A stretch of DNA of 64,000 nucleotides from an uncultured Bacillales bacterium (GCA_947564265.1 CANOBK010000003.1:24331-88330); one strand, 5' to 3'; counted from the first letter of the stretch, positions 28,011 through 50,599 are shown. Translations and numbers: made by a program. The notes: generated by a model from the sequence alone, not told the origin.

Positions 28011-28034
28011 AAATTATTTCCCGGGAAATAATTT
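28011..28034. promoter_or_regulatory. Noc-binding site (NBS) palindrome, copy 1
   Basis: AAATTATTTCCCGGGAAATAATTT is a perfect palindrome. Its core TATTTCCCGGGAAATA (28015-28030) equals the published B. subtilis NBS consensus. It is intergenic and flanked by A- and T-runs. Confidence 0.75.
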
Positions 28035-28149
28035 TTGCTTTTAAATTATATTTTTTGTTTTACTAATTCATTTTATATAATCAATATAATCTATTTTAAC
28101 TTTTTGTTGATGAATTTATCTTTTTCCAACTTAATATTTAAATTTTATT

Positions 28150-28770
28150 TCATTTTTTTAATAAAACTACAGGTTTTTCTTTTGTAATTTGATAAGCAAT
28201 CTTAATATCCCTTTGTTCTTCTATTTTTCCTATTATATAACTGAAATTAGTACATGATCTTATATGCCTAATAGCTTGATCCATAGAATCATTAAATTTT
28301 TTTAGGAGTTTTTTTTGTTTGTAATTTGAAAGCTCAACAAATTGTTTCATCATGATTTCATCAATTTCTTCTATGGATGCATTAATGATTCTCTCCCTAC
28401 TTTTCGATAAACAACCATCATTATAGGTATATTGCTTTTCTATAATTTTCCCTTCTTTATCAAATTTTGAATGAAGCATAATATGTTGTTTCTTTTCTAC
28501 ATCAAGGCGTGTTGTTATTTCTTCTATTAAAAAATCCTGTTCATCAAAAATCATAATAAATAATACTGGGTAAGGTTCAAATGGAGCACGAAAGTGAATT
28601 CTAATAATTTGATGATTGATTTTTACATCAATTTTTGTATCCCTAAACACTATACTTTCCCATTTGGATAAAATGATGGGACTTTGACTTTCTAAATCCT
28701 TTAAATATGTTAATACTGGTTCTATTTCGATTAATTCTTTATTTCTCTTTTTTAAAGATTCTATAATCAT
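28150..28770 (-). CDS. hypothetical protein (206 aa) between mnmE and mnmG
   Basis: Long ORF starting 9 nt after the mnmE stop. No recognised domain. Confidence 0.7.
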   Translation of the reverse strand: MIIESLKKRNKELIEIEPVLTYLKDLESQSPIILSKWESIVFRDTKIDVKINHQIIRIHFRAPFEPYPVLFIMIFDEQDFLIEEITTRLDVEKKQHIMLHSKFDKEGKIIEKQYTYNDGCLSKSRERIINASIEEIDEIMMKQFVELSNYKQKKLLKKFNDSMDQAIRHIRSCTNFSYIIGKIEEQRDIKIAYQITKEKPVVLLKK

Positions 28771-28779
28771 TTTACTTAC

Positions 28780-30135
28780 CTACTTTCCTAAACAGAATTG
28801 ACTGAATAATTGATCAATTAACTCCTCTGTATAGCTTTCTCCTATAATTTCCCCTAACTTTTCCCATGCACGTTTGATATCAATTTCTACCATATCAATT
28901 GGAATTTCTTCTTGAATTCCTTTTTCTACTTCTTCTAAAATACTATATGCTTCCTTTGCTAAAGAAATTTGCCTTATGTTATTAAGACAAGCATAGTCTT
29001 TTTGTTCTAGTTCATTTAAATTAAATAATTCTATAATTTTTTCCTTTAATTCTTCAATACCATCTAACTCAATGGTATTTGTATAAATGATATTCTTATA
29101 TTTGATTTGATCTATTTCAATTTTTCTTTCTAAATCATTTTTATTAATAACTACAATCGCTTTCTTATTTTTACATGCATCTAATATTTTATAATCTTCT
29201 TTTGTTAATTTTTCATTATTATTTAGTACTAATATAATTAAATCAGCCTCTTCAATTAAATTTAAACTCTTCTCTACTCCAATTTTTTCTACTAAATCTT
29301 TTGCTTCTCTAATCCCTGCAGTATCAATAATATTTAGTGATACTCCATTAATAGTGATATTTCCTTCTACAGTATCTCTTGTTGTTCCTTCAATATCAGT
29401 AACAATTGCTCTTTCTTCGTCTAATAGTCTATTTAAAATACTACTCTTTCCAACATTTGGACGTCCTATAATAATTGTTTTAATTCCATTTGATAAGATT
29501 TTTCCATTCTCCGATTCATTGATAATTTTATTAAGTTTTCTTTTAATCTCTGATATTTTTGGACTTATTTTATTATTTGTCATTACTTCTGCATCTTCAT
29601 ATTCTGGATAATCAATATTTACTTCAATCGATGCGAGTAATTCTAATATTTCTTGTCTTAAATTACGAATAATTTTACTAACATACCCACTAATTCCTTG
29701 AATTGCTACTTTTCGGTTTGATTCACTTTTAGAAGAAATTAAATTCATAACAGATTCTGCCTCTAATAAATCAATTCTTCCATTTAAAAAGGCTCTTTTT
29801 GTAAATTCTCCTGCTTCTGCCATTCTCGCTCCTTGATTTAAAATAAGTTCTAATACCTTATTTGTAGTGGCAATTCCACCATGACAATTTACTTCAACTA
29901 TATCTTCAGTAGTAAAAGTTTTTGGGGATTTCATTACTGATACTAATACTTCATCAATAATTTCTTTATTATCGATAATATGTCCATAGTGAATGGTATG
30001 TGTATTAACTTTTGTTAAATCTTTTCCTTGAAATATTTTATTCACTATTTCTGTTGATTTTTTTCCACTTACTCTAATAATTGAAATAGCCCCTACACCC
30101 ATTGTAGTAGAAATAGCAGCGATTGTATCATTCAT
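28780..30135 (-). CDS. mnmE: tRNA modification GTPase MnmE
   Basis: 451 aa. G-domain GRPNVGKSS, DTAGIR, NKNDL, C-terminal ..FCLGK. Confidence 0.97.
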   Translation of the reverse strand: MNDTIAAISTTMGVGAISIIRVSGKKSTEIVNKIFQGKDLTKVNTHTIHYGHIIDNKEIIDEVLVSVMKSPKTFTTEDIVEVNCHGGIATTNKVLELILNQGARMAEAGEFTKRAFLNGRIDLLEAESVMNLISSKSESNRKVAIQGISGYVSKIIRNLRQEILELLASIEVNIDYPEYEDAEVMTNNKISPKISEIKRKLNKIINESENGKILSNGIKTIIIGRPNVGKSSILNRLLDEERAIVTDIEGTTRDTVEGNITINGVSLNIIDTAGIREAKDLVEKIGVEKSLNLIEEADLIILVLNNNEKLTKEDYKILDACKNKKAIVVINKNDLERKIEIDQIKYKNIIYTNTIELDGIEELKEKIIELFNLNELEQKDYACLNNIRQISLAKEAYSILEEVEKGIQEEIPIDMVEIDIKRAWEKLGEIIGESYTEELIDQLFSQFCLGK

Positions 30136-30201
30136 AAATTACACCTCTAATCCTTTTCAGTAGTTATAGAATAACACTTTTAATATAAAAAGAAAAGAAG
30201 A

Positions 30202-30813
30202 TTATTCATCCTCTTTTGGCTTTATGACTACGAAACGATTTGGTTCTTCCCCTTCACTTTCTGTAATTACTCTTTTGTTTTCGGCAAGAACTGTATGAAT
30301 GATTCTTCTTTCATAGGAGTTCATTGGATCTAATTTTGCAGCAATCTTTGATTTACTTACTTCTCTTGCTACTCTTTTTGCAAGAGATTCAAGTCTTCTT
30401 TGTTGTTGCATTTTATATTCACCAATATCGATTGTTAAGTTAAAGTAAGTACCTATTTCTTTATGCACTACTTGTTTTATCATTGTTGTGATTGCATCTA
30501 ATGTTTTTCCGTTCTTTCCTATTAAAATGGCATTATTATCTGAATAAATCGTAAATGATACCATCTCTTCCCGTTTTTTTACCTCTATATTTGCTGTTAA
30601 ATTCATATTTTTGATTAAGTCTTTCAAATAATCTTTTATGAATTCAATTATATCTTCTTTGGTAGCTACTTCTATTTCTACCTTTTTACTAAATAAACCT
30701 GATTTTACTTCTACTTCTTTAATATAGAGATCTTTTTCTAATTCTTGTAATGCAATTGTTGCTTGGCTAATTGCCTCTTCTTTCGTTTTTCCTACGTACT
30801 TACTTTTTTTCAT
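30202..30813 (-). CDS. jag: RNA-binding protein Jag/KhpB (Jag_N-KH-R3H)
   Basis: 203 aa. KH GKNGKTLDA, R3H ..PMNSYERRIIHTVL.., in the conserved position after yidC. Confidence 0.9.
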   Translation of the reverse strand: MKKSKYVGKTKEEAISQATIALQELEKDLYIKEVEVKSGLFSKKVEIEVATKEDIIEFIKDYLKDLIKNMNLTANIEVKKREEMVSFTIYSDNNAILIGKNGKTLDAITTMIKQVVHKEIGTYFNLTIDIGEYKMQQQRRLESLAKRVAREVSKSKIAAKLDPMNSYERRIIHTVLAENKRVITESEGEEPNRFVVIKPKEDE

Positions 30814-30815
30814 AG

Positions 30816-31742
30816 TTATTGAACCTCCTTACTTCTCTTTACAATTAAGTTTTGAACAATTGTAAATAAGTTTGTTGTAATCCAGTAGATATTTAATGCA
30901 CTTGACATAAATAATCCCATTACTAGAACCATACCTGTCATGATGTTTGTCATATTTTTCATAGGATCGTTTTCGGTCTGAGCAGTTGTTTTATTTAAAC
31001 TAAATGATAAGTAAGTGGTTATACCTACTAGTGCAATTAAAATTAAGTAAAGAAATTCACCATTATTGAATAATCCAACAGAAGGAGTCGTTCCTAATTG
31101 TAATCCTAAGAATTTACCTTCGAATAATGCTGGCACACGATTGATTGCTTCTAAGAAAGCAATGAATAATGGCAATTGAATAAATGAATAAAGACAACTT
31201 GAAAATGGATTGATATTATATTTTTTATAAATCATTGTCATTTCCTGACTCTTTTTCATGATTGATTCTTGATCATTTTTATCTTTATATTTTTTTTCTA
31301 ATCGATTCAACTCTGGTTGTGCTTTTTTTATTAATTCAGATTGCATTGCTGTTTTTAAAGTGATTGGATATAGAACTAATCTTAAAGCAAGACTTGTTAA
31401 GATTAAAGATAATCCGGCTTGACCAATGTATTTATTGATAAACAATATGATAAATGCTAATGGTTTTACGAAGAATGTAGTCCAAAGTCCTTCATATCCC
31501 CCACTCGTTATACTAAATTCAGTACATTTTGGAATAGCAGCTAAATCAACACCATTCTGCTCATATAGTTCTTTTACCTTTTCATTTGTAGGCTTACATA
31601 ATATATTTTCTGTTAAACTTTGACCTGTTTCCGGATTTTTAACAACTTTCTTATCCTCTGTTTTTAAAGTTGTTGTACATCCAGTTAATAATAATATGGA
31701 TAATAGCAATACTACTATTTTTTTCTTGTTCTTCTTATTCAT
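30816..31742 (-). CDS. yidC: membrane protein insertase YidC/SpoIIIJ (lipoprotein type)
   Basis: 308 aa. Lipobox LLLTGC, then conserved ..GLSLILTSLALRLVLYPIT.. Confidence 0.93.
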   Translation of the reverse strand: MNKKNKKKIVVLLLSILLLTGCTTTLKTEDKKVVKNPETGQSLTENILCKPTNEKVKELYEQNGVDLAAIPKCTEFSITSGGYEGLWTTFFVKPLAFIILFINKYIGQAGLSLILTSLALRLVLYPITLKTAMQSELIKKAQPELNRLEKKYKDKNDQESIMKKSQEMTMIYKKYNINPFSSCLYSFIQLPLFIAFLEAINRVPALFEGKFLGLQLGTTPSVGLFNNGEFLYLILIALVGITTYLSFSLNKTTAQTENDPMKNMTNIMTGMVLVMGLFMSSALNIYWITTNLFTIVQNLIVKRSKEVQ

Positions 31743-31743
31743 T

Positions 31744-32085
31744 CTATTTCTCCTCTGAAAAATTACTATTTTTTATTAAATTAAGAAAAGATTTTTCTAA
31801 TTCCTTATATTCAACACCTAAACAGTTCTTTCTTATTATTATAATATAATCTTTGTGTTTTGAATAGAGTTTTTTATTTGCATCAATGATATTTCTTAAT
31901 TTTCTTTTATATAGATTTCGCACTACTGCATTCCCTGTCTTTTTACTAATTGAAATGCCAAATCTGTAATGATTTAAATTATTATCCATAATATTTAGTA
32001 CAAAATGCTTATTTTTATAGCACTTTCCCTCACCTATTATCTTATTAAAATCTCTACTTTCTTTTACAATATTCATTTTTTTCAT
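31744..32085 (-). CDS. rnpA: ribonuclease P protein component
   Basis: ~113 aa. ..KESRDFNKI.. and the RNR-type motif ..GNAVVRNLYKRKLRNI.. Start set at MKKMNIV (GGTGAG RBS). The ORF-track start at 32097 is also possible. Confidence 0.9.
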   Translation of the reverse strand: MKKMNIVKESRDFNKIIGEGKCYKNKHFVLNIMDNNLNHYRFGISISKKTGNAVVRNLYKRKLRNIIDANKKLYSKHKDYIIIIRKNCLGVEYKELEKSFLNLIKNSNFSEEK

Positions 32086-32113
32086 AATACTCACCATTCT
32101 TGTATTATAGTAT

Positions 32114-32139
32114 TTAAAAAAACCACTACTTTAGTGGTC
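32114..32139 (-). terminator. hairpin plus T-run between rpmH and rnpA (probable partial terminator)
   Basis: Stem ACCACTA (32122-32128) / TAGTGGT (32132-32138) with a 3-nt loop. A T-run follows on the - strand. Confidence 0.4.
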
Positions 32140-32142
32140 TAT

Positions 32143-32265
32143 TTATTTAGATAGTCTTTTACGACCTTTTGCTCTACGTCTATTTAAAACTTTTGATTTC
32201 ATACGTGCGAAAAAACCATGCTTCTTTTTCATTTTTCTATTATTTGGTTGATAAGTTCTCTTCAT
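32143..32265 (-). CDS. rpmH: 50S ribosomal protein L34
   Basis: Hand translation of the - strand gives [53 protein letters not shown] lies upstream. It is below the 60-aa cutoff of the ORF track. Confidence 0.93.
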
Positions 32266-32295
32266 AATTCCACCTCCAGACATAAAATCTACATT

Positions 32296-32324
32296 AGTAT
32301 AATAAACCTACCATATTTTGTCAA
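32296..32324 (-). promoter_or_regulatory. sigmaA-type promoter of rpmH-rnpA operon
   Basis: On the - strand: TTGACA (32319-32324), 17-nt spacer, TATACT (32296-32301). Confidence 0.6.
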
Positions 32325-32393
32325 TGTTTTTTCTACAATTTATTTTTTATATTTTGTCTATAGAATGTTTTTAAAATGATTCATTTTTATAGA

Positions 32394-32581
32394 TTTTCCA
32401 CACTTTGCACAGCATGTTCATAATTTTTTTCACATAGTGAATTGTTTTTTTTCACAAAATTGTTGATAAATTCATAATTTCTTTATATAGTAAGGATATA
32501 AGTTGTGGAAAAGCATGTGGATAGATTGTGAATTAGCTGTGGATACATATTTTTTTAATTTTTTTACTTTATTTTTCCACA
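32394..32581. promoter_or_regulatory. oriC upstream DnaA-box cluster (rpmH-dnaA intergenic)
   Basis: Five 8/9 matches to TTATCCACA: TTTTCCACA 32394-32402, TGTGGAAAA 32504-32512, TGTGGATAG 32516-32524, TGTGGATAC 32538-32546, TTTTCCACA 32573-32581. Weaker TTTTTCACA copies lie near 32426 and 32447. Confidence 0.85.
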
Positions 32582-32633
32582 CATTTAAGTTACAATAGGT
32601 CTTGCAATTTACGATTTAGAGGGGGCGCGGTAT

Positions 32634-34019
32634 ATGAATGAAAAAATGATATGGTCAAATTTTCTAAATAGTATAAAAAACGAAATTACCCCTCTATCAT
32701 TTGATACCTGGTTCAAGGAAACAGAATTGTACGATTTAAAAGATGGATTGGCAAAAATAATCGTGCCGATGGGGATTTCAAAAAAACATTTAACGACACA
32801 TTACTATGATTTGATTGTATCAACCTTAGGGGAGATTATAGGAGATAATATAGATATTCAATTCTTTTTAAAAGAAGAATTAGAAGAAGAAAATAAAGTT
32901 GAGCAACAACAACTTTTTGAAAGTATGGAGAAGGGTAGATACTATGAAGAACAAGTCCCTAAGCGAATCCATCAATCTAATTTAAATCCTAATTATACTT
33001 TTGAAAATTTTATTGTAGGGAATAGTAATAAATTTGCTCAAGCTGCTGCTTTAGATGTTGCTGAGAATCCTGGGAATATTTATAATCCTTTATTTATATA
33101 TGGAAATAGTGGACTAGGGAAGACACACTTAATGCATGCAATAGGAAATTATATTGAACAACATAGTGATAAAAAAGTTTTATATGTTTCTAGTGATCAA
33201 TTTATTAACGATTTTCTTGGAATTAATAAGAAAGATGAACATGGAAAAAATTTTGATTATGTTAATTATTTCAAAAATAAATATAGAAATATAGATGTAC
33301 TTATTATTGATGATATTCAGTTTTTTCAAGGTGCGACTCAAACACAAAATGAGTTTTTCCATACATTTACCAACTTACATGATGAAAATAAGCAGATCAT
33401 TATCTCATCTGATCGATCGCCAGATGATTTGAAATTACTAGAGGACCGACTGCGAACCAGATTTTGTTGGGGACTAACTGCTGATATTTATCCACCGGAC
33501 TTTGAACTACGAGTTGCTATATTAAAAAAGAAGATAATAGGGGAGTCCATCAATAAAAATATCCCAGATGATGTCATTGAATACATTGCTTCTAATGTAG
33601 GAAGTGATGTCAGACATTTAGAGGGCTCTATTACAAGACTTCTTGCTTATTCAACCATTATGGGTGGAGCAGATATTACTCTTGATTTAGCAATTGAAGT
33701 ATTAAAAGACTATGTTAATAAAGGATATAGTGAAAAGAATAATATTAATCGAATTCAAAGAATTGTAGCAGAACATTTTCAAGTATCTGTCGATGATTTA
33801 AAAAGTAAAAAGAGAAGTGCAAATCTTGCATTTCCAAGACAAGTTGCTATGTATCTTTGTAGAAAACTAACCGATGAATCCTTTCCTAAGATTGGGATTG
33901 AATTTGGAGGAAAAGATCATTCTACTGTCATCCATTCAGTAGAAAAGATTGAAAAGGAAATTCTTAGTAACAAAGAACTTGAAAATATTATAGAGAAATT
34001 AAAGAAGGAAATTGTATGA
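32634..34019 (+). CDS. dnaA: chromosomal replication initiator DnaA
   Basis: 461 aa. Walker A GNSGLGKTHL, IIDDIQF, DNA-binding ..FPRQVAMYLCRKLT..GIEFGGKDHSTVIHS.. Confidence 0.98.
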   Translation: MNEKMIWSNFLNSIKNEITPLSFDTWFKETELYDLKDGLAKIIVPMGISKKHLTTHYYDLIVSTLGEIIGDNIDIQFFLKEELEEENKVEQQQLFESMEKGRYYEEQVPKRIHQSNLNPNYTFENFIVGNSNKFAQAAALDVAENPGNIYNPLFIYGNSGLGKTHLMHAIGNYIEQHSDKKVLYVSSDQFINDFLGINKKDEHGKNFDYVNYFKNKYRNIDVLIIDDIQFFQGATQTQNEFFHTFTNLHDENKQIIISSDRSPDDLKLLEDRLRTRFCWGLTADIYPPDFELRVAILKKKIIGESINKNIPDDVIEYIASNVGSDVRHLEGSITRLLAYSTIMGGADITLDLAIEVLKDYVNKGYSEKNNINRIQRIVAEHFQVSVDDLKSKKRSANLAFPRQVAMYLCRKLTDESFPKIGIEFGGKDHSTVIHSVEKIEKEILSNKELENIIEKLKKEIV

Positions 34020-34134
34020 TGTGGAAAACTTAAAAATAATTCACAAATTATAAACAAGGTAAAAATGCTGAAAATGTATTATTCAAATGCAAATAGGAAC
34101 TTTTCCACAGTTTCCACTGTAATAATAATAATAA
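34020..34134. promoter_or_regulatory. oriC downstream element: DnaA boxes plus TAA trinucleotide run (candidate DnaA-trios)
   Basis: TGTGGAAAA 34020-34028, TTTTCCACA 34101-34109 and TTTCCAC 34111-34117 are followed at once by (TAA)x5 at 34120-34134. Confidence 0.6.
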
Positions 34135-34157
34135 ATTAATAGAAAGAAGGAATATAT

Positions 34158-35425: not shown

Positions 35426-35869
35426 GTGGAAAATTATGAAGTAGGTGTCAATACCTTAGCTGTAGTTGGAATGGGGCGTAAAAGGGCTAAAATCGTCGAA
35501 TCCGAGGGTGATTTATTGGTAAACTTTCCAGCTTATGAAGTTATGGATCATAGTTGTTGTTACTATGGAAGTAGCTATTCTGGGAGAACACAAGGTAGTA
35601 AGGAAATTCTAAAATGTGAATATAAGCTTCCTATTATTGTGGAAGAAACAAAGGAACTTATCTTTTTTCCAACTCAATCTCCAAGTACTGATGCATGTAT
35701 TTGGCTATCTTTAGGAAATATCGATTATGTAGAAGGAAATCATAAGCAATGTACTATTGTATTTAAAAATGGAAAAAATTTAACTATTTTTCGTTCAAAA
35801 GATTCGATTGAAAATCAACTTTATAGGGCAACCAGACTAAAATATTTGTTATCTCAGCGAAAAAACTAA
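35426..35869 (+). CDS. comK: ComK family protein
   Basis: 147 aa, GTG start after a GGGGGA RBS. ..YEVGVNTLAV.., ..VMDHSCCYYGSSYSGRTQGS.., KLPIIV, LIFFPTQSPSTDACIW, FKNGKNL and ENQLYRATRL follow the B. subtilis ComK pattern (SC.FFGSSYAGR, K.PI.V, FPT.S...C.W, F.NGK, ENQVYR). Confidence 0.8.
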   Translation: MENYEVGVNTLAVVGMGRKRAKIVESEGDLLVNFPAYEVMDHSCCYYGSSYSGRTQGSKEILKCEYKLPIIVEETKELIFFPTQSPSTDACIWLSLGNIDYVEGNHKQCTIVFKNGKNLTIFRSKDSIENQLYRATRLKYLLSQRKN

Positions 35870-41735: not shown

Positions 41736-41752
41736 AATATCAATATAATAAG

Positions 41753-41779
41753 GACATTTCATTTAGAAGTGTCTTTTTT
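41753..41779 (+). terminator. rho-independent terminator after gyrA
   Basis: Stem GACATTTC (41753-41760) / GAAGTGTC (41766-41773, one G-U pair), followed by a T6 run. Confidence 0.6.
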
Positions 41780-41878
41780 AAATCAGTGAGTATGAGTATA
41801 TTTAAAAATTTAAATATGAAAATAATTATTCATGATTGAATGTAGGTTGTACTTAATATGAATTATATAAATTCAATA

Positions 41879-41912
41879 AAAAAAAACGACTATTAATTAG
41901 TCGTTTTTTTTT
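41879..41912. terminator. bidirectional rho-independent terminator
   Basis: A8 run, stem ACGACTA (41886-41892) / TAGTCGT (41898-41904), T9 run. It lies between the gyrA region and the convergent - strand ORF ending at 41919. Confidence 0.7.
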
Positions 41913-41918
41913 ATTCTA

Positions 41919-42200
41919 CTACATACGTCTTTCTACTTCTTGTTCTGATTGATTGTCAATATTTTCTATATTTTTTGCCATTTCTACTAAAGAAATTGAT
42001 TGCTCTGTTAAGTTTAACATTTCTTGAAAATTATCACTTAATATTTGACCAGTTACATCTAATTCCTTGACATCAAACATTAAACTAAAGATTGTTGCTT
42101 GTATTTCTTTTAACTTCTCAGCGGTTTGATTCATTTGTTTTTTTTCATCCATTTGATCCATCTGATTCATTATTTGATCCGTTTGGTCTATTTGATCCAT
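41919..42200 (-). CDS. hypothetical small acidic protein with MDQ/MNQ repeats (93 aa)
   Basis: Start set at ATG 42198-42200 (MDQIDQTDQIMNQMDQMDEKKQMNQ..), preceded by GAGGTGA. The C-terminal half is predicted helical. No recognised family. Confidence 0.55.
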   Translation of the reverse strand: MDQIDQTDQIMNQMDQMDEKKQMNQTAEKLKEIQATIFSLMFDVKELDVTGQILSDNFQEMLNLTEQSISLVEMAKNIENIDNQSEQEVERRM

Positions 42201-42374
42201 TTCATTCACCTCAGTTTTTATTATACTGTAACATATTGGAAAATTCAACATCTGTTTGAATTTTATATATATAAATATTGTTTAAATTTAATGAAGAAAA
42301 TGTAAATATCATATTAAATCATATTAGAAAAAATCATAACTATATTTATTTTAGTAATTATTTATTGTAAATAT

Positions 42375-42398
42375 AAATTATTTCCCGGGAAATAATTT
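42375..42398. promoter_or_regulatory. Noc-binding site (NBS) palindrome, copy 2
   Basis: Identical 24-mer AAATTATTTCCCGGGAAATAATTT, core 42379-42394. Confidence 0.75.
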
Positions 42399-42414
42399 AT
42401 AAATAATCTTTTAT

Positions 42415-42430
42415 AGTTTCACGTGAAACA
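42415..42430. promoter_or_regulatory. parS site (15/16)
   Basis: AGTTTCACGTGAAACA against the consensus TGTTTCACGTGAAACA. It begins 20 bp after the NBS copy 2 core. Confidence 0.8.
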
Positions 42431-42597
42431 TAGGTTCCTATATTTTAAAAATGTGAGTGTTATTAAGAAATTCTTATAGTATGTATAAGTTTTAAGTTAT
42501 TTTCACTACAAATTGACTAATTACTGTATAGTTTTAAATTTTTATAGTACCTATGAATTTATATGAAATTATGGTAAAATTATCTCGGTGGTTTAAT

Positions 42598-42945
42598 ATG
42601 AATTTATATGACAAATATTTTTTTTGTACTTTATTAACTATTATAATAACAAGAACATTTGTGTATTTGTTTAATAGACCTAGTCCAACCATAAAAGGTT
42701 TTAGGACGCATCACTGGATGTTTGGATTATTGTTATCAATCATACTTTTTTGTATATCAAGTTTTTATGTAAATATATATTTATTATCTATTAGTATGGG
42801 AATATTTTTAGATGAAATAGGATTTATTATAGTTCGAGGAAAAACTCATGAAGATAATTATAGTCCAAAATCTTTTATGATATTGATGTTTTTTATATTG
42901 CTTTTATTTATATTTAGAAAAAATATTGTTAATTTTTACTTATAA
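42598..42945 (+). CDS. hypothetical small membrane protein (115 aa)
   Basis: 3-4 predicted TM helices. Start set at the second ATGAATTTATATGA repeat (42598), which has a GGTGG RBS. Coding status is uncertain in this very AT-rich island. Confidence 0.4.
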   Translation: MNLYDKYFFCTLLTIIITRTFVYLFNRPSPTIKGFRTHHWMFGLLLSIILFCISSFYVNIYLLSISMGIFLDEIGFIIVRGKTHEDNYSPKSFMILMFFILLLFIFRKNIVNFYL

Positions 42946-43198
42946 TTATGAAAAATGTAAGTAGTATGTTTTAAAATTCAAAAAATAAAAATTTTATTTG
43001 CTACATGTTTCATACTACATAATAAGGGTAACATTGTATCTTATTATGACGAATACTTTAGTAACTATGTTACTAGTCTTGCCGATGGGTATATTTTATT
43101 ACTATGCCATTCATTATATTTTTTTTGAATATATTAGAACTTTCAAAAAAATTAATTATAGAAATTTACTACTGAAGGTAGAAATATAAGAAGTAATA

Positions 43199-43222
43199 AA
43201 ATTATTTCCCGGGAAATAATTT
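43199..43222. promoter_or_regulatory. Noc-binding site (NBS) palindrome, copy 3
   Basis: Identical 24-mer, core 43203-43218. Confidence 0.75.
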
Positions 43223-43258
43223 TAATAGAATATATAAAATAAACCTATTTTAACTAAA

Positions 43259-43274
43259 TGTTTCACGTGAAACA
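43259..43274. promoter_or_regulatory. parS site (16/16)
   Basis: TGTTTCACGTGAAACA is a perfect match to the palindromic parS consensus. It begins 40 bp after the NBS copy 3 core. Confidence 0.88.
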
Positions 43275-43317
43275 TAAAAAAGTATTGTTTTTTTGCATGA
43301 TTTATAATAAAATATAA

Positions 43318-43398
43318 ACGTGCAATAAATATTAATGGAACCAGGTCAGGATCGGAAGGTAGCAGCCTTAACATTTAATATTTATGTGCACTTTTTTT
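43318..43398 (+). ncRNA. ffs: signal recognition particle RNA, short 4.5S-like form
   Basis: CCAGGUCAGGAUCGGAAGGUAGCAGCC (43341-43367) matches the universal SRP domain IV (E. coli CCAGGUCAGGUCCGGAAGGAAGCAGCC) with a GGAA tetraloop. It is closed by a long A/U-rich helix (GTGCAATAAATATTAATG with CATTTAATATTTATGTGCAC) and followed by T7. It sits next to tadA/dnaX, like B. subtilis scr. Confidence 0.85.
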
Positions 43399-43413
43399 AT
43401 GGAAGTGATAAAT

Positions 43414-43854
43414 ATGTATGAAAAATATATGTTAGAAGCATTAAAGGAAGCAAAACTTGCTCTAAAAGAGGGAGAGGTTCCAATAGGTGCGGTATTAGTT
43501 TATGAAAATAAAATAATCGCTAAGTCACATAATACTCGGATTTCTGATAATTGCGTTTTAGGTCATGCAGAAATAAATGTACTGAAAGAGGCTAGTAAGA
43601 TATTGAATGACTGGAGATTAAAAAAATGTACTCTATATGTAACACTTTTACCATGTCCAATGTGTTCAGGTGCAATTAATCAAGCTAGAATTGATAGAGT
43701 AGTATGTGGTACTGTACCAAATAATTCAAATTATTCCTTAATTTATGAAATTTTAAATGACAATAACTATGGAAAGCCGGTAGAACTGTTTACTGGTGTT
43801 TTAGAGGAAGAATGCTCAGAATTATTAAAAAAATTTTTTTCAAAAAATAGGTAG
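43414..43854 (+). CDS. tadA: tRNA adenosine(34) deaminase TadA
   Basis: Start set at MYEKYMLEALKEA.., because the ORF-track start at 43384 lies inside the SRP RNA. Deaminase motifs GHAEINV and LLPCPMCSGA. Confidence 0.92.
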   Translation: MYEKYMLEALKEAKLALKEGEVPIGAVLVYENKIIAKSHNTRISDNCVLGHAEINVLKEASKILNDWRLKKCTLYVTLLPCPMCSGAINQARIDRVVCGTVPNNSNYSLIYEILNDNNYGKPVELFTGVLEEECSELLKKFFSKNR

Positions 43855-43913
43855 TAATTATCTAAAAAGTAAGATGTTATATGATATAATATTAGTAGTT
43901 TTGGAGGTGAATT

Positions 43914-45614
43914 ATGTCCTATCAAACATTTTACAGAAAGTATAGACCATCAGATTTGGATGATGTTTCTGGTCAACAATCAATTGTTAAAATTATTAGA
44001 AATTCTTTGAAGTTTAATCGAATTAATCACGCATATTTATTTTGTGGGCCAAGAGGAACTGGAAAAACAACAATGGCTAGAATTTTAGCTAAAAATGTGA
44101 ATTGTTTAGATCTTCAAGATGGGATGGCCTGTGGAAAATGTAAAAATTGTATTTCAATATTAAATGGAAACTGTCCAGATATAATTGAGATGGATGCTGC
44201 TTCTAATAACGGGATTGATGAAATTCGTGAAATTAGAAACAAAGTTTCTTTAGTACCAACTGAATTAAAATATAAAGTGTATGTAATAGATGAGGTACAT
44301 ATGTTGTCGATTGGTGCGTTTAATGCATTATTAAAAACTTTAGAAGAACCACCAGAACATGTAATCTTTATTTTAGCTACTACTGATATGCATAAAGTTC
44401 CAAATACTATTGTTTCTAGATGCCAATGTTTAGATTTTCATCGAGTAAGAGAAGAGGATATTATACATAGACTAAACCAAATAGTTGAAGCTGAAAAAAT
44501 TACGATTGAACCTGAAATTATAGAAAAAATAGCAAATTTATCAGATGGTGGTTTTCGAGATGCTATTGGTATGTTAGATAAATTAGTCTCTTATTCAAAT
44601 GAAAATATTACTATGATTGACTTTGAAGAACTGAATGGTATTGTTTCGCAGGACGAAAAAATACAGTTTTTAAAAATAATTGAGAAAAATGATATAAAGA
44701 AAGTGATTGAATTTATCGATAAAATCTATAATGGTGGAAAAGATTTGATTATATTTTCACAGGATCTTATGATTTTATGTAGAAATCTAATTATCGATTA
44801 CTACTCTTATGAAAAAACTGATTTCGATATTGAATTTCGATTACTTTTTGTGGAAAAATTAGATGAAATTATTCTTTCACTAAAAAATACTAATAATACT
44901 AGAATCATATTTGAAACTAAAATTTTATCATTTATATATCAAAAATCTAGTGTAAATAATTTCAATCCTATCGAAAATGAAAAAGTTTCACTAAATAATC
45001 AAGTTGATTTAGAAGATAAAGTAATTGAAAAAGAGGTTTTAAATTCTGATCAAAAGGTATCAATTGAAGAAGAAAATAATAGTGATGGTAGTATACAAGA
45101 AGAAAGCTTCTTAAAGAAAAATGAAATCATTATTAATAATTGCTTCTGCAATGCTTCTAAGCAAAAACTAAATTTTGTAAAAGAAAATTGGAAAAAATTG
45201 AATGATTATGCATTAGATAGCCATTATGGAGCGGTTGCTTGTTATCTTTCAGATGCAACTGTTCGAGCTGCAGCAGATCATGAAATAATTATAACTTTTG
45301 ATTATGAGTCTGTTGTTACAAGAGGATTTAAATTTAACTATCAAATTGAACAATTACTAAAAAAAATATTGGAAGATGATTACTATGTTGCGTATCTTAC
45401 TGATGAACAGTGGAATCGTGAAAAAAGTAAATATATAGAAAATAAAAATAATGGGATAAATTATACCTACCAAAATTTAGAAGATTTACTAAATCAAAAT
45501 ATTAAACAAGATGATAAGAAAACAAATATATTAGAAACAGTTCCTTCTGATGGTTCTATTGCTGGAGAGGCAATTAAACTGTTCGGGGAAAATATTGTAA
45601 GTGTAGATGAATAA
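43914..45614 (+). CDS. dnaX: DNA polymerase III subunit gamma/tau
   Basis: 566 aa. ..GPRGTGKTTMARILAK.., zinc module CGKCKNC, ..VYVIDEVHMLS.., SRCQ. Confidence 0.96.
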   Translation: MSYQTFYRKYRPSDLDDVSGQQSIVKIIRNSLKFNRINHAYLFCGPRGTGKTTMARILAKNVNCLDLQDGMACGKCKNCISILNGNCPDIIEMDAASNNGIDEIREIRNKVSLVPTELKYKVYVIDEVHMLSIGAFNALLKTLEEPPEHVIFILATTDMHKVPNTIVSRCQCLDFHRVREEDIIHRLNQIVEAEKITIEPEIIEKIANLSDGGFRDAIGMLDKLVSYSNENITMIDFEELNGIVSQDEKIQFLKIIEKNDIKKVIEFIDKIYNGGKDLIIFSQDLMILCRNLIIDYYSYEKTDFDIEFRLLFVEKLDEIILSLKNTNNTRIIFETKILSFIYQKSSVNNFNPIENEKVSLNNQVDLEDKVIEKEVLNSDQKVSIEEENNSDGSIQEESFLKKNEIIINNCFCNASKQKLNFVKENWKKLNDYALDSHYGAVACYLSDATVRAAADHEIIITFDYESVVTRGFKFNYQIEQLLKKILEDDYYVAYLTDEQWNREKSKYIENKNNGINYTYQNLEDLLNQNIKQDDKKTNILETVPSDGSIAGEAIKLFGENIVSVDE

Positions 45615-45637
45615 TAAAAATAAAGGAGAGATGAAAT

Positions 45638-45934
45638 ATGAACTTACAAGCACTAATGAAACAGGCACAAACGATGCAAAAAGATATGATGAAAGCTAAG
45701 GATGAAATAGATAAGACTATTTTTACGGGGGAAAATGGATTCGTTAAAGTTGAAGTGAAAGGAACAAAAGAAGTTATCAAAGTTGAAATTGATAATTCAG
45801 AACTAACTTCAGATGATATTGAATTCTTACAAGATATGATTGTAATTGCTATCAATGATGCATTTAAAAAAGTTGATCAGATGACAGAAGAAAAAATGGG
45901 AAAATTTGCTAACGCTATGCCAGGAATGTTCTAA
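45638..45934 (+). CDS. ybaB: YbaB/EbfC family nucleoid-associated protein
   Basis: 98 aa. MNLQALMKQAQTMQKDMMKAKDEI.., in the conserved dnaX-ybaB-recR order. Confidence 0.93.
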   Translation: MNLQALMKQAQTMQKDMMKAKDEIDKTIFTGENGFVKVEVKGTKEVIKVEIDNSELTSDDIEFLQDMIVIAINDAFKKVDQMTEEKMGKFANAMPGMF

Positions 45935-45935
45935 G

Positions 45936-46532
45936 ATGTATCCAGAAAGTTTAGAAAATTTAATAGAATGCTTTAAGTATTTACCTGGGATTGGTGAAAA
46001 AACAGCAGAGAGATTAGCTTTTTCAGTTATGGATATGTCAGAGGATAGGGTAGAACATTTTAAAGAAAGTATAGAATCATGCAAACAAAATATTCATTCA
46101 TGTCCTATTTGTAATGTTTTAACTGATTTAGAAAAATGTAATATTTGCCAGAATGAATTAAGAAATGATTCCTTACTCTGTGTAGTAGAAGATCCTAAAT
46201 ATGTTTTTCTATTTGAAAAGCTAGGAATGTTTAAGGGAAGATATCATGTATTAAATGGCTTGATTTCTCCAAAAGAAGGTGTCAATCCAGAAGATATTGA
46301 TCTAGGTAAGTTGATAGAAAGAATTAAAAATTCAAATTTTAAAGAAATTATTTTAGCATTTCGTCCGAGTATTGAGGGTGAGACTACCTCTCTTTATATT
46401 AAAAGAATTTTAGGTGACTTAGATCTTAAAATTTCTAAGATTGCCAGTGGAATTCCGATTGGTGCTGATATGGAGTATATCGATGCCATGACATTGGAGA
46501 GAGCATTGCTTGACCGTAAAAATGTAGAATAA
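45936..46532 (+). CDS. recR: recombination protein RecR
   Basis: Start set at MYPESLENLIECFKYLPGIGEKTAERLAF (ATG 45936, 1 nt after the ybaB stop). Cys4 finger CPICNVLTDLEKCNIC and a Toprim domain. Confidence 0.95.
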   Translation: MYPESLENLIECFKYLPGIGEKTAERLAFSVMDMSEDRVEHFKESIESCKQNIHSCPICNVLTDLEKCNICQNELRNDSLLCVVEDPKYVFLFEKLGMFKGRYHVLNGLISPKEGVNPEDIDLGKLIERIKNSNFKEIILAFRPSIEGETTSLYIKRILGDLDLKISKIASGIPIGADMEYIDAMTLERALLDRKNVE

Positions 46533-46570
46533 ATTATATTATTTACCATATTTTTTAATAGGTGATAATA

Positions 46571-46756
46571 ATGAAAAAAGTGATTCAGTATTCAAAACGT
46601 TTGATTCTTAGTTTTTTTGTACTTTATGGTTTTAATATGATTGCAGCAAATTTCAGTATCCTTATACCTATTAATATATTAACGATTACTTTAACTTCAT
46701 TTTTAGGGTTTCCTGCATTATTTTCTTTGGTCTTACTATATGTATTTCTTCGCTAG
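46571..46756 (+). CDS. bofA: BofA-like (pro-sigmaK processing inhibitor) small membrane protein
   Basis: 61 aa from ATG 46571 (AGGTGA RBS). ..LIPINILTITLTSFLGFPALFSLVLL.. resembles B. subtilis BofA ..HVPINLVTTAISGILGIPGIAALVVI.. and holds the same position after recR. Confidence 0.6.
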   Translation: MKKVIQYSKRLILSFFVLYGFNMIAANFSILIPINILTITLTSFLGFPALFSLVLLYVFLR

Positions 46757-46767
46757 GAGGTGATTGG

Positions 46768-47643
46768 ATGTTAGATTCTTTTGTAGAAGAGCAGCCTTAT
46801 TTTGTGGATGGGATAAAAAAATTAGTTTGTAAAAATAGAATTTCTCATGCCTATCTAATTGAAACACGAAATTATCAGAATGCAAATTCTGTAATTTTAT
46901 CTTTTGCAAAATATTTATATTGTCCAAATCATCTATCTCCATCTGATACCTGTGAAGAGTGTAATTTATGTTCTTTAATTGATCAAAATGCAAATGGTGA
47001 CTTTCTTCAAGTATACCCAGATGGTGCTTTAATAAAAAAGAAGCAAATTCTTGAGATTAAAGAAAAATTTATGACAAAACCACTAAGTGAACAATCAAGG
47101 CGTGTTTATATCATATATAATGCAGACAAGTTGAATAAAGAAGCTGCCAATTCATTGTTGAAATTTCTAGAAGAGCCTGAAGATAATATTGTAGCGATTT
47201 TAGTAACAGAAAATCGATATCAGGTAATTGATACGATTCGAAGTAGATGTCAAATATTTTCCTTAATGAATCATGATATAGAAATTACATTTTCAAATCT
47301 AGAACTTACTCATAAAATTATAAAATGTTTAGAGGAAAAGAAAATTCAATCAATTTCTTATCTTCCCATGATATTAGAAAATCAATATTATAATAGAGAG
47401 CAATGGATCGGAATTCTTACAGAAATACAGTATATCTATGAACAATCAATCCGAAAATTAGAAAATGCCTCCTTTTCCTTAGAAATCGAATCAATTATAG
47501 ATGAAATTTTAGAAAATAATACGGAGCAATCTTTATTACATAAGATAGAAACAATTCATAATCAATTAAAAAATTTAGAATACAATTTGAACATTAGTTT
47601 GATGTTGGATGATTTTGTTATTAAATTTTTTACAATAGAATGA
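46768..47643 (+). CDS. holB: DNA polymerase III delta' subunit
   Basis: 291 aa. ..ISHAYLIE.., Cys cluster CEECNLC, ..LLKFLEEPEDNIVAILVTEN..IRSRCQ. Confidence 0.9.
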   Translation: MLDSFVEEQPYFVDGIKKLVCKNRISHAYLIETRNYQNANSVILSFAKYLYCPNHLSPSDTCEECNLCSLIDQNANGDFLQVYPDGALIKKKQILEIKEKFMTKPLSEQSRRVYIIYNADKLNKEAANSLLKFLEEPEDNIVAILVTENRYQVIDTIRSRCQIFSLMNHDIEITFSNLELTHKIIKCLEEKKIQSISYLPMILENQYYNREQWIGILTEIQYIYEQSIRKLENASFSLEIESIIDEILENNTEQSLLHKIETIHNQLKNLEYNLNISLMLDDFVIKFFTIE

Positions 47644-47657
47644 TAGGTGGTGATATT

Positions 47658-48452
47658 ATGATTACAGTAGCAGTTGTTCACTTCAAAAAGAATACGAAAA
47701 AATATTATTTTAATGTTAATAATTTGGACTTAAAAAGTGGACAAGATGTAATTGTGGAAACGGAAAAGGGATTACAATATGGACAAGTTATCTCTATTAA
47801 AAAACTTTCTGAAAAAGATCTTGGGTTGCCTCTAAAAAATGTAGTTCGAATCGCAACTGAAAAAGATAAGAAACAATATGAGAAAAACTTGAATGATGCA
47901 AATAAGGCTCTTGAAATTGCGAGGAAAAAGGTAGCTGAACTAAAATTAAATATGCGAATTATTGATGCTAGATTTACTTTTGATCGTGGCCAATTACTTT
48001 TTAATTTTTTAGCAGATGAACGAATTGATTTCAGAGAACTGGCAAAAAAATTAGCACAAATTTATCATACTAGGATTGAACTTCGTCAGATTGGTGTTAG
48101 AGATAAAGCAAAAGATATTGGTGGCTTAGGTCCTTGTGGAAGATTTTTATGTTGTAGTACCTTTTTAACAGACTTTAATAGTGTATCGATTAATATGGCT
48201 AAGAATCAGATGTTGGCATTAAATCCATCTAAAATAAATGGCGTTTGTGGAAGACTACTTTGTTGTTTAAAATATGAGGATGAAACTTATAACCAATTAA
48301 AAAAGAGTCTTCCGAAGGTAGGATCAATTTATAAAAATGGTGATACTGTAGGAAAAATAGTTTCTCTAAATGTCTTTAAAAAGACTGCAATTATTGAAGT
48401 AAAGAATCATGTTCAAGTAGAGGTTGATTTAAACAATGGAAGTACTGAATGA
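47658..48452 (+). CDS. ricT: PSP1-domain protein RicT/YaaT
   Basis: Start set at MITVAVVHF (GGTGGTGA RBS). ..RIELRQIGVRDKAKDIGGLGPCGRFLCCSTFL.. and ..CGRLLCCLKYE.. Cys motifs. Confidence 0.92.
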   Translation: MITVAVVHFKKNTKKYYFNVNNLDLKSGQDVIVETEKGLQYGQVISIKKLSEKDLGLPLKNVVRIATEKDKKQYEKNLNDANKALEIARKKVAELKLNMRIIDARFTFDRGQLLFNFLADERIDFRELAKKLAQIYHTRIELRQIGVRDKAKDIGGLGPCGRFLCCSTFLTDFNSVSINMAKNQMLALNPSKINGVCGRLLCCLKYEDETYNQLKKSLPKVGSIYKNGDTVGKIVSLNVFKKTAIIEVKNHVQVEVDLNNGSTE

Positions 48453-49155
48453 TTTAGTAAACTATCATAACCTGAAAATCTATCAAAATACAGATTGGTT
48501 TTTATTCTCATTAGATTCGGTTTTATTGCCGAATTTTGTAACTTTAAATAAAAATATAAAAACGATTATGGATTTAGGAACGGGAAATGCACCTATTCCC
48601 TTAATACTATCTACAAAAACAAAAGCCAAGATTATAGGAATTGAAATCCAAAAAGATGTTTATGAGCTAGCTAGAAAAACAATAGAGTACAATTCTCTCC
48701 AACACCGAATAGAATTATATAATCTTGATATTAGAGAATTGAATAATCATTTCAAAGGAGATTCAGTAGATATTATTACTTGTAATCCTCCTTATTTTAA
48801 AGTAGAGAAAGAGAGTAATTTAAATGAAAATCCACATAAAATAATAGCACGCCACGAAATAAGTTTAACTTTGGAAGATGTATTAAAAACATCGAGATAT
48901 CTTTTAAAAAATAATGGTGTTTTAGCATTAGTTCATCGAACAGATCGCTTTTTAGATATTTTAAGATTATGTTCTAAATATGGATTAGAAGTAAAAAAAA
49001 TAAGATTTATTTATCCAAAGGTAGATTCAGAATCTAATATGATTTTAGTAGAGGCTAGAAAAAATGGAGGAGTAGGCTTAAAGGTATTACCACCGCTTTA
49101 TGTTCATGAAGAAAATGGAGATTATACGGAAGAAGTATTAGAAATGTTCCAATAA
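48436..49155 (+). CDS. tRNA (adenine37-N6)-methyltransferase TrmN6/YabB-like
   Basis: 239 aa. SAM motif MDLGTGNAPIPL and catalytic CNPPYF. Confidence 0.85.
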   Translation: MEVLNDLVNYHNLKIYQNTDWFLFSLDSVLLPNFVTLNKNIKTIMDLGTGNAPIPLILSTKTKAKIIGIEIQKDVYELARKTIEYNSLQHRIELYNLDIRELNNHFKGDSVDIITCNPPYFKVEKESNLNENPHKIIARHEISLTLEDVLKTSRYLLKNNGVLALVHRTDRFLDILRLCSKYGLEVKKIRFIYPKVDSESNMILVEARKNGGVGLKVLPPLYVHEENGDYTEEVLEMFQ

Positions 49156-49172
49156 TATAAAGGAGAAATGTT

Positions 49173-49709
49173 ATGTTTTATTCTAGGGTTCTTTTAAAAA
49201 ATGAAAATAAAATTAGAGAATATCTAAGGAAAAATCAGTATCAGAAAGTCAGTGATTTTGCTTTTTATGATTTAGTTTATATCAATAAGAATGGTAGTTC
49301 TATCACTGATGATACTTTAAAAGTTAGAGTTTATCAACATAATGAGTGGAAAAACAAGAATATCTTAGTAATACTTAAAAGAGCAATTTTTACTGGTAAT
49401 CAAAAAGAAGATAAAGTTTTGTTGAGGGAAGAATTTGATGATTTAGAAAGTGCCATGAAATTCGTTCAAGAAAATTATGAAAGTGAATACGATTTTTCTT
49501 TTAAATTAGAGAAAACTGGTGTACAATATCAAACGGAAATGGCGACTATTTGGTTAGAAGATATTGTAGATTTAGGAGTCAGTGCAGAAATTGGCTCTGA
49601 GTATCCAGAAGTTATTGATCAAGTTATTCAACAATTAGATATCATAGAAAAACTAGAAGTTTCTATTCCTGAATATATGTATCAAAATATTGTGAACCGC
49701 AAAAGATAA
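49173..49709 (+). CDS. hypothetical protein (178 aa)
   Basis: Long ORF between trmN6 and rsmI. It has only a weak CYTH-like feel (..IWLEDIVDLGVSAEI..) and lacks an ExExK motif, so it is left unassigned. Confidence 0.65.
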   Translation: MFYSRVLLKNENKIREYLRKNQYQKVSDFAFYDLVYINKNGSSITDDTLKVRVYQHNEWKNKNILVILKRAIFTGNQKEDKVLLREEFDDLESAMKFVQENYESEYDFSFKLEKTGVQYQTEMATIWLEDIVDLGVSAEIGSEYPEVIDQVIQQLDIIEKLEVSIPEYMYQNIVNRKR

Positions 49710-49735
49710 TCTTTATTATAGTAAGGTGGGATAGC

Positions 49736-50575
49736 ATGAGACAAAAAAGTTACGATAATAGTCCAAGTCTATATTTAATACCGACACCTGTAGGGAATAT
49801 GGAAGATATTACATTACGCGCAGTTAATACACTAAAGATGGTTGATTTATTACTGTGTGAGGATACTAGAATTACTTCAGAATTACTTCATCATTTGGGT
49901 ATTAAAAAGAAGCTAATTCACTCAGATGATCACACGGAAGACTCTTTAAAAGAGATGGTATTATGTAAACTTCAAGAGGGCTTAAATATTGGATTAGTAA
50001 CGGATCGTGGCACTCCAATTATTAGTGACCCTGGATATCGTATCGTCGAGTATATAAGTAGACATGGATATAATGTGATTAGTCTTCCAGGTCCTACTGC
50101 TTTTGTTCCTGCACTTACGATGTCTGGAATTCATCCGTCTCCTTTTTTGTTTTATGGATTTCTAAATAGTAAAACATCTAAACGAGAAAAGGAGTTGGAG
50201 TCTTTAAAAAAGCTTACTTTTACTATTATTTTTTACGAGGCACCTCATCGTATTCATGATATGCTTACATCATTACTCAAAGTATTTGGAAATCGAAATA
50301 TAGCATTATGTAGAGAGATTAGTAAAAGATACGAGGAAGCGATTCGAGGTACTGTTGAAGAAGTTTTACAAATTGCTGATTCATTAAAAGGAGAAATGGT
50401 AGTTGTAGTAGAAGGTAATTTAGTTCAAGAAGATTTTTCAAGTATGACCATTCTAGAACATATTGCATTATACTTAGAAGATGGAATGACAGAGAAGGAA
50501 GCAATTAAAAAAGTAGCTGTGGAAAGAGATATTCCAAAGTCAATTGTTTATAAAGAATATCATACGGAAAAGTAA
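49736..50575 (+). CDS. rsmI: 16S rRNA (cytidine1402-2'-O)-methyltransferase RsmI
   Basis: 279 aa. ..LYLIPTPVGNMEDITLRAV..LLCEDTR.., ..FYEAPHR.. Confidence 0.93.
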   Translation: MRQKSYDNSPSLYLIPTPVGNMEDITLRAVNTLKMVDLLLCEDTRITSELLHHLGIKKKLIHSDDHTEDSLKEMVLCKLQEGLNIGLVTDRGTPIISDPGYRIVEYISRHGYNVISLPGPTAFVPALTMSGIHPSPFLFYGFLNSKTSKREKELESLKKLTFTIIFYEAPHRIHDMLTSLLKVFGNRNIALCREISKRYEEAIRGTVEEVLQIADSLKGEMVVVVEGNLVQEDFSSMTILEHIALYLEDGMTEKEAIKKVAVERDIPKSIVYKEYHTEK

Positions 50576-50599
50576 AAATTATTTCCCGGGAAATAATTT
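50576..50599. promoter_or_regulatory. Noc-binding site (NBS) palindrome, copy 4
   Basis: Identical 24-mer beginning 1 nt after the rsmI stop codon, core 50580-50595. Confidence 0.75.

Follow-up and report, generated by a model that had tools for sequence, protein, structure and literature searches.

Why should the replication origin of a gut bacterium carry several perfect copies of one long palindrome? The question is raised by the origin region of an uncultured bacterium assigned to the Bacillales (GCA_947564265.1, CANOBK010000003.1:24331-88330), a stretch of 64,000 nucleotides, referred to here as the window, that contains the chromosomal origin and has a guanine-plus-cytosine (G+C) content of 30%. 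Four letter-identical copies of a 24-bp palindrome, AAATTATTTCCCGGGAAATAATTT, lie in this window, and their 16-bp core matches the consensus binding site of the chromosome-binding protein Noc (the Noc-binding site, NBS), TATTTCCC-GGGAAATA as used by Jalal et al. 2020 (PMC7383237), at 16 of 16 positions in every copy. A Noc-type paralogue of ParB is encoded nearby. We consider it quite probable that the palindromes are binding sites of this protein. We also favour, with somewhat less assurance, an arrangement in which they serve as loading sites for a Noc-family clamp within a dual ParB/Noc complex at the origin and centromere. The further suggestion that the protein is a component of the centromere, and not an occlusion factor, is a tentative one.

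The four copies are all intergenic when compared with a mechanical list of open reading frames (ORFs), and they stand alone: the window holds no further match to the 24-mer even at up to three mismatches, and 100 shuffled sequences gave none. The 16-bp core, searched with the same tolerance, returns these four matches only, against 0.57 expected, and CCCGGG occurs in the 64 kb solely inside them. On the identity and intergenic position of the copies, on the agreement of their core with the published Noc-binding sequence and on the restriction of CCCGGG to them, the first-pass annotation of this DNA, made from the sequence alone, was correct. Suitable motifs for a scan at the level of whole genomes (0-2 mismatches) would be TATTTCCCGGGAAATA and TGTTNCACGTGAAACA. 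Since the origin is fixed by a switch in GC skew near 32 kb and by clusters of DnaA boxes that flank dnaA (six at 32394-32581 and two at 34020-34109), the palindromes can be placed, relative to these boxes, at about -4.4, +8.3, +9.1 and +16.5 kb. No NBS was found outside this interval in 84 kb of the source contig, made up of the window and 10 kb beyond each of its ends.

The crowding of sites around the origin, which the first-pass annotation had pointed out for this one stretch, turns out to be more extreme than it had claimed, as it is found throughout a clade. We scanned for the exact 24-mer with one genome per species and obtained at least 120 blocks (879 kb; L001-L120); the clade counts that follow refer to these listed blocks unless another sample is named. 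The palindrome is present in at least 117 contigs, which all differ in assembly accession prefix and apparently come from a different species genome each. Synteny with the genes at 22-63 kb of the window is seen in 117 of the 120 blocks, and their proteins are 35-90% identical to those of the window. The other three blocks are fragments of 338-2954 bp, one of which adjoins a syntenic block, while one is an array of NBS and parS sites of the kind described below. Individual positions recur as well: the intergenic gaps around mnmG, mnmE and jag in relatives hold sites equivalent to copy 1, and the gap between rsmI and pth, which holds copy 4 in the window, carries a site in 13 relatives.

Compared with their flanks, the four window copies cease to be identical 0-2 nt from the edges of the 24-mer, so that 4 bp on each side extend the known core. 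This extension had been taken to hint either at a longer recognition site or at recent homogenisation; the clade supports the former and speaks against the latter. Among 137 non-ascertaining NBS, 64 are exact 24-mers, and the flank positions follow AAAT/ATTT in 79-96% of cases. In the same loci the flanks of parS, the site of ParB, are extended by 1 bp only, an A...T pair present at 98-99%. AT-richness as the cause of the conserved flanks is rejected on this ground, since the neighbouring parS sites extend no further. Judged by these alignments, the site is conserved in the clade as a 24-bp form, and the longer site is real and not a product of recent homogenisation, because the 4-bp flanks are conserved clade-wide. 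Copying of a small mobile repeat within the genome, or some other recent homogenisation, would suit four letter-identical copies in 23 kb, but it fits neither the limit of identity at the edges of the 24-mer nor the presence of the same 24-mer at syntenic places in at least 117 species genomes, whose proteins have diverged to between 35 and 90% identity. We regard this explanation as effectively refuted and give it almost no credence.

A sample gathered with the 24-mer might owe its flanks to the search itself, and a second sample, of metagenome contigs scanned with the 16-mer core alone (at least 120 loci, split by G+C), removes this ascertainment. There are 56 listed loci with a G+C of at most 0.31, and 48 of them are syntenic with the window and 30 have parS; exact 24-mers make up 34 of their 91 sites, and 30 of the 91 have a parS within 100 bp. 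The 64 listed loci of higher G+C include six that are syntenic and two with parS, show no flank consensus, and have a parS within 100 bp at none of 66 sites; these are probably other taxa or chance matches. Ascertainment by the 24-mer is thus answered, in that the low-GC matches still lie at the origin with their flanks and the higher-GC matches do not.

Not all copies in relatives are intergenic. In 27-31% of cases an NBS falls inside an open frame of at least 100-200 residues, as compared with 69-84% of random positions, and 39 of the 258 core-exact NBS fall within dnaX, as judged from their position relative to tblastn matches to the window's proteins. The window's own dnaX has no copy. Those dnaX copies that were examined in detail sit at about 62-71% of the ORF length, in a variable linker and sometimes twice, a position that we take to be near the tau/gamma boundary of E. 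coli dnaX. Across all intragenic copies the palindrome is read as IISREII or as NYFPGNN, depending on the species, and its third frame ends in TAA. Because intragenic copies are read in two different frames, selection acts on the DNA. A core-exact NBS is also found, in three relatives, inside the coding sequence (as DNISREIK) of the orthologue of a class I tRNA synthetase encoded at 60877-62460 in the window.

These intragenic copies bear on another proposal of the first-pass annotation, that the element doubles as a bidirectional terminator with a GC-clamped hairpin. The idea, which extends to an RNA or DNA hairpin like that of repetitive extragenic palindromic (REP) elements, draws on a perfect palindrome set between runs of A and T and on the position of three of the four copies just past the end of an ORF, which had been noted correctly: copy 1 begins 115 nt past the stop of orf206 on the minus strand and is upstream of mnmG, copy 3 begins 9 nt after the end of ORF 42998-43189, and copy 4 directly follows rsmI. 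Folded in context, copies 1-3 also reach z-scores between -2 and -3.4. Yet the hairpin is not GC-clamped. As RNA, the 24-mer alone gives a 10-bp stem of A-U pairs closed by one C-G pair on a CCGG loop (-5.3 kcal/mol), so that most of the CCCGGG centre is loop. Copy 4 has a z-score of about -0.5 and no U-tract past the stem. A terminator consensus scan found nine terminator-like sites in 27-46 kb, none of them a palindrome copy, while conventional terminator hairpins follow dnaN, rnpA and orf110. With 27-31% of relatives' copies in long ORFs, 39 of them in dnaX, the proposed bidirectional terminator is not borne out. Intrinsic termination as the function of the element is ruled out by the weak fold, the terminator scan and the dnaX-internal copies, and repeats of the REP type or of bacterial interspersed mosaic elements (BIMEs) are ruled out as well, since the copies are all perfect, confined to the origin and in part intragenic, and lack the genome-wide dispersal of REP elements. 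We therefore find this family of explanations very improbable, and note that individual copies may cause weak pausing. A search of sequencing runs turned up host-labelled (mouse) runs and metagenome contigs, and neither ChIP data nor bacterial RNA-seq.

The protein that would read the sites has ParB_N, the N-terminal domain that binds cytidine triphosphate (CTP), and HTH_ParB according to Pfam. Among solved structures its best matches, at 229, 229 and 205 bits, are Noc proteins of Geobacillus and Bacillus, ahead of Spo0J/ParB at 188 and 177 bits, and its last 42 residues match positions 214-255 of TIGR04285 and no other family. An acidic, disordered insert of about 110 residues, rich in Pro, Asn and Ser, separates the DNA-binding domain from this C-terminal domain. 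At the four specificity positions, which read QKKR in Noc and RTAG in ParB, the protein has Q173, K179, S184 and R201; in an engineered ParB, Q and R together with a single permissive Lys were sufficient for NBS specificity (Jalal 2020). The motifs GERRYKA, GKSQ...ANK...S and SERHAR, and the set QKSR, are invariant in 120 of 120 listed orthologues, and the public names given to its relatives are only 'ParB/RepB/Spo0J family partition protein'. The NBS-type residues, the Noc C-terminal domain and the structure scores together uphold the first-pass assignment of this gene to a Noc-type ParB paralogue.

A canonical ParB system shares the neighbourhood. The features of a chromosomal ParABS centromere are all present, namely a consensus parS near oriC, a ParA, and a ParB that carries R173 and, at its N-terminus, a motif of the ParA-interaction type (ALGRGLEELF); the specificity positions of this ParB read R, M, N and S (S201). 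At up to two mismatches there are just two parS-like sites in the 64 kb, and each adjoins a palindrome (Table 1), a pairing absent from the first-pass annotation; by a rough calculation, the chance of both falling within 60 nt of one of four NBS is about (480/64000)^2 = 6e-5. Relatives repeat this pairing. Counted at up to one mismatch, 282 parS sites occur in 72 blocks, 276 of them in the gap between gyrA and dnaX, and 115 of 272 NBS in the first sample have a parS within 100 bp. Complete gyrA-dnaX gaps are contained in 46 blocks, of which 45 have parS (median 4, maximum 10), 32 have NBS and 31 have both. This gap, which belongs to a gyrA-dnaX region of 2.2 kb in the window (41736-43913), is the conserved parS/NBS cluster of the clade. 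The parS of the clade is effectively an 18-bp palindrome; among 165 perfect sites, the 16-mer is preceded by A and followed by T in 98-99%.

In some species the two kinds of site alternate (N-P-N-P) in tandem arrays of a 125-126-bp unit that reach 11 NBS and 10 parS. Units of the three arrays given in Table 1 are 88-91% identical within an array and contain one NBS and one parS each, with a 58/68-bp geometry common to all. A unit of 126 bp spans roughly 12 turns of the helix. Following the NBS, the spacer contains a ACTTCTnTATATAAAA-like element that is common across species, a candidate promoter or third binding site.

A ParB with dual specificity, a kind of variant that does occur in mutational scans, or else an unrelated regulator of origin-proximal genes, could bind the palindromes, in which case their likeness to the NBS would be incidental; several copies lie just upstream of genes or promoter-like sequence, such as the predicted -35 hexamer of mnmG, 23 nt downstream of copy 1. 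However, the combination of R173 and S201 in the ParB found here occurs among parS-specific variants, the copies inside dnaX misfit the role of an operator, and a 16/16 match to the NBS consensus is conserved alongside an NBS-type paralogue. We consider another binder quite improbable, and keep the Noc-type protein as the putative reader of the palindromes.

The N-terminus of this protein, on which the first-pass annotation is silent, undercuts any simple reading of the system as nucleoid occlusion. In Noc, an amphipathic helix at the N-terminus (about residues 1-10) is required for function (PMC4331003, PMC8429893). This helix is highly conserved in all Noc proteins examined, and NocNdelta10 is non-functional (Adams et al. 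2015); CTP frees it for membrane binding (Jalal et al. 2021). The protein encoded in the window begins MDREVVDLYL. Because residue 27 of Geobacillus Noc is matched by its residue 4, and because the reading frame is closed by a stop eight codons upstream and offers no alternative start, the membrane-targeting helix, helix alpha-2 and the loop are, on the alignment, absent. Orthologues begin MD(R/K)EV... in about 115 of the 120 listed, the few exceptions resembling upstream start calls, and the membrane-targeting helix is missing in all 120. A hydrophobic-moment scan for a substitute membrane helix gave amphipathic windows only within folded domains, which is a weak negative, and no cationic amphipathic segment was found in the linker or at either terminus.

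It is conceivable that classical nucleoid occlusion nevertheless operates here, limited to the origin, through a true Noc that is linked to the membrane or the divisome by its linker or by a partner; the NBS cluster would then mark the origin as the zone in which division is barred. The protein is of Noc descent and has NBS specificity, and the organism is walled, with genes of the divisome and of sporulation (a class A penicillin-binding protein (PBP), DivIC, SpoIIR and SpoVT). In B. subtilis, Spo0J and Noc jointly block Z rings over the nucleoid (PMC6852036). Set against this are the loss of the membrane helix in 120 of 120 listed orthologues, when NocNdelta10 does not function in B. subtilis, the lack of a cationic amphipathic segment in the linker or termini, and the restriction of the sites to a few tens of kb, which would leave most of the nucleoid unprotected. 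Occlusion of this kind is unlikely in our judgement, and it is unlikely that the Noc-type protein serves as a membrane-tethering nucleoid-occlusion factor. With no membrane helix and no ParA-activating peptide of the ParB type, a role as a second component, structural or regulatory, of an origin/centromere complex is favoured instead. In this large and species-rich clade of uncultured gut Bacilli, Noc may have been converted from a membrane-tethering division inhibitor to a second centromere clamp at interleaved NBS and parS, a step that we put forward tentatively.

In the dual ParB/Noc complex that we favour, the four palindromes would be nucleation sites for a CTP-dependent clamp whose gene lies 3 kb away. 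As judged from homology with B. subtilis Noc, the NBS core would be recognised by dimers via Q173 and R201, with K179 as the permissive residue, and the site preferred in the clade would be 24 bp long, comprising the core and its AAAT/ATTT flanks. Bound dimers would take CTP, close as a clamp and slide onto the flanking DNA. The gyrA-dnaX gap would then load Noc-type and ParB clamps next to each other, and the two would jointly coat an origin/centromere domain; with a spread of 8-10 kb per site, as in S. aureus, four sites would cover about 35 kb around oriC, including the ParB complex. Candidate roles for such a domain include compaction or segregation of the origin, loading of SMC, confinement of ParB clamps and control of initiation. 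S. aureus Noc controls replication initiation.

Several points weigh against this reading. Position 184 of the protein is Ser in place of the near-invariant Lys of Noc, although K179 is kept, and its TIGR04285 score (295.2 bits for the native protein and 301.4 without the linker) is below the NCBIfam cut-off of 315. The clade-specific linker may provide contact with the membrane or the divisome, and the genome may encode a second, canonical noc gene elsewhere. Nor do these analyses account for the four extra conserved bp on each side of the core. Two low-GC contigs have the full 24-mer beside polA, without synteny to the window, for which reason confinement to the origin is not absolute; these copies (L147 7782-7797 and L218 887-902) lie upstream of polA in one contig and between polA and fpg/mutM in the other, and imply either a few sites outside the origin block or rearranged genomes. 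Finally, the scans covered the listed blocks and loci and the source contig, and weaker or degenerate NBS may exist elsewhere.

Table 1. Features of the origin region and of related blocks. Positions count from the first letter of the window, or of the block named.
Feature	Sequence	Position	Strand	Remarks
NBS-type palindrome, copy 1	window	28011..28034		stands alone between orf206 and mnmG; DnaA-box cluster about 4.4 kb to the right
NBS-type palindrome, copy 2	window	42375..42398		in the gyrA-dnaX gap; parS-like site 16 nt away
NBS-type palindrome, copy 3	window	43199..43222		36 nt from a perfect parS; SRP RNA gene about 90 nt downstream
NBS-type palindrome, copy 4	window	50576..50599		stands alone; follows the rsmI stop immediately, with orf112 and pth downstream
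parS with one mismatch, AGTTTCACGTGAAACA	window	42415..42430		16 nt from copy 2
Perfect consensus parS, TGTTTCACGTGAAACA	window	43259..43274		36 nt from copy 3; consensus per PMC7383237
Noc-family ParB paralogue	window	24144..25235	minus	363 aa
parA, soj-type ATPase	window	23239..24039	minus	
parB, spo0J-type	window	22371..23273	minus	ParB_C domain; translation likely begins at the ATG three codons inside the ORF as listed
oriC region	window	32394..34109		DnaA-box clusters on both sides of dnaA and GC skew; reference for site distances
NBS/parS array	L093	2363-3702		11 NBS and 10 parS
NBS/parS array	L003	2258-2963		6 NBS and 6 parS; from a complete 1.52-Mb chromosome of a metagenome-assembled genome (MAG), OZ006970.1
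NBS/parS array	L047	1113-1570		4 NBS and 4 parS
dnaX-embedded 24-mer	L001	3788-3811		about 35 other loci in addition to the four listed
dnaX-embedded 24-mers	L035	2837-2989		
dnaX-embedded 24-mers	L036	4824-4941		
dnaX-embedded 24-mers	L117	1457-1574		

The genes around these features run parB-parA-noc-rsmG-mnmG-orf206-mnmE-jag-yidC-rnpA to the left of the origin and, to its right, dnaA-dnaN-comK-like-recF-gyrB-gyrA, followed further on by the signal recognition particle (SRP) RNA gene and tadA-dnaX-ybaB-recR-holB-PSP1-methyltransferase-orf178-rsmI-orf112-pth-mfd. The SRP RNA gene (43311-43406, plus strand; Rfam, 59.7 bits) begins 37 nt downstream of the perfect parS. The mechanically called tadA-like deaminase ORF (43384-43854, plus strand) has a start that overlaps this gene; as its Pfam match begins at residue 12-13, translation probably starts at the ATG near 43414, which would make the overlap an artefact. 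The slot between dnaN and recF, which in Firmicutes usually holds the small S4-like gene yaaA, is taken by an ORF of the ComK family (35426-35869, plus strand; PF06338, 137 bits, full length), and 15 related blocks have orthologues with 36-57% identity in the same slot. Downstream of copy 4, orf112 (50657-50995, plus strand) has no Pfam match; over its residues 43-79, though, it aligns with the first 37 positions of TIGR01009, a model of ribosomal protein S3 (E = 5.5e-12, far under the cut-off). Farther to the right, a T-box leader (59107-59310, plus strand; Rfam, 112 bits) lies upstream of an operon of a 155-aa ORF, a dUTPase and the class I tRNA synthetase mentioned above.

The source organism is an uncultured gut bacterium whose DNA is present in mouse-gut runs, and the MAGs related to it carry the labels Bacilli, Tenericutes, 'Mycoplasma sp. 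CAG', 'Clostridium sp. CAG:710' or Candidatus Scybalousia. In this lineage, with 'Tenericutes' and 'Mycoplasma' among its labels, the 10 kb beyond each end of the window (L123 and L126) encode SpoIIR, GerQ, SpoVT, SpoVG, YabP, a YabG-type protease, Veg, DivIC and a class A PBP. Because a class A PBP, DivIC and sporulation proteins are encoded in these flanks, we conclude that the organism is walled; it is probably spore-forming.

In the textbook account of this pair of paralogues, Noc and ParB have diverged in DNA specificity and so avoid interference, ParB marking the origin and Noc coating most of the chromosome and tying it to the membrane. In the clade the sites of the two stand beside each other, and the Noc paralogue is without the one feature by which Noc inhibits division. 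If our proposal is right, the clade provides a natural case of two CTP switches of the ParB family in one loading zone, and of a functional re-assignment that followed the loss of a 10-residue helix. NBS specificity would then predate or outlive the role in nucleoid occlusion. Such a shared loading zone would raise questions of mutual roadblocking, of mixed condensates and of SMC loading, and a natural preferred site of 24 bp would raise that of whether Noc-type proteins read past the 16-bp core. A full-text search of the literature found no description of interleaved parS and NBS or of helix-less Noc proteins. The adjacent, orthogonal pair of sites might also be useful for existing DNA-labelling tools based on ParB and Noc (PMC11109969).

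Set beside known systems, the locus is closest in its parts to the Noc-NBS systems of B. subtilis and S. aureus. It shares with these the 16-bp core, Q173, K179 and R201, the GERRxxA motif for CTP, the Noc-type C-terminal domain and the rsmG-noc-parA-parB arrangement by oriC. It differs from them in its sites, which are perfect 24-mers in the clade and degenerate 14-16-mers in the model species, and in their distribution, since B. subtilis has about 70 NBS around most of the chromosome and S. aureus 41 within +/-700 kb, whereas the window has four within about 22 kb of oriC and those of the clade are confined to the origin and interleaved with parS. The protein differs too, in lacking the membrane helix, in having Ser184 and in its disordered insert of about 110 residues. 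In layout the locus resembles a chromosomal ParABS centromere, with a few perfect palindromic sites within about 20 kb of oriC, a protein of the CTP-clamp type, and a canonical parS, ParA and ParB intermingled with the NBS. What sets it apart from such a centromere is a second, paralogous clamp that has a site of its own and neither a ParA-stimulating peptide nor a membrane helix. The tandem arrays invite comparison with the iterated centromere sopC of plasmid F, which consists of 12 tandem 43-bp repeats with a SopB site in each. Both repeat a unit that contains a site for a protein of the ParB family, but each unit of the clade joins an NBS with a parS at a fixed 58/68-bp spacing, one site for each of two paralogous proteins.

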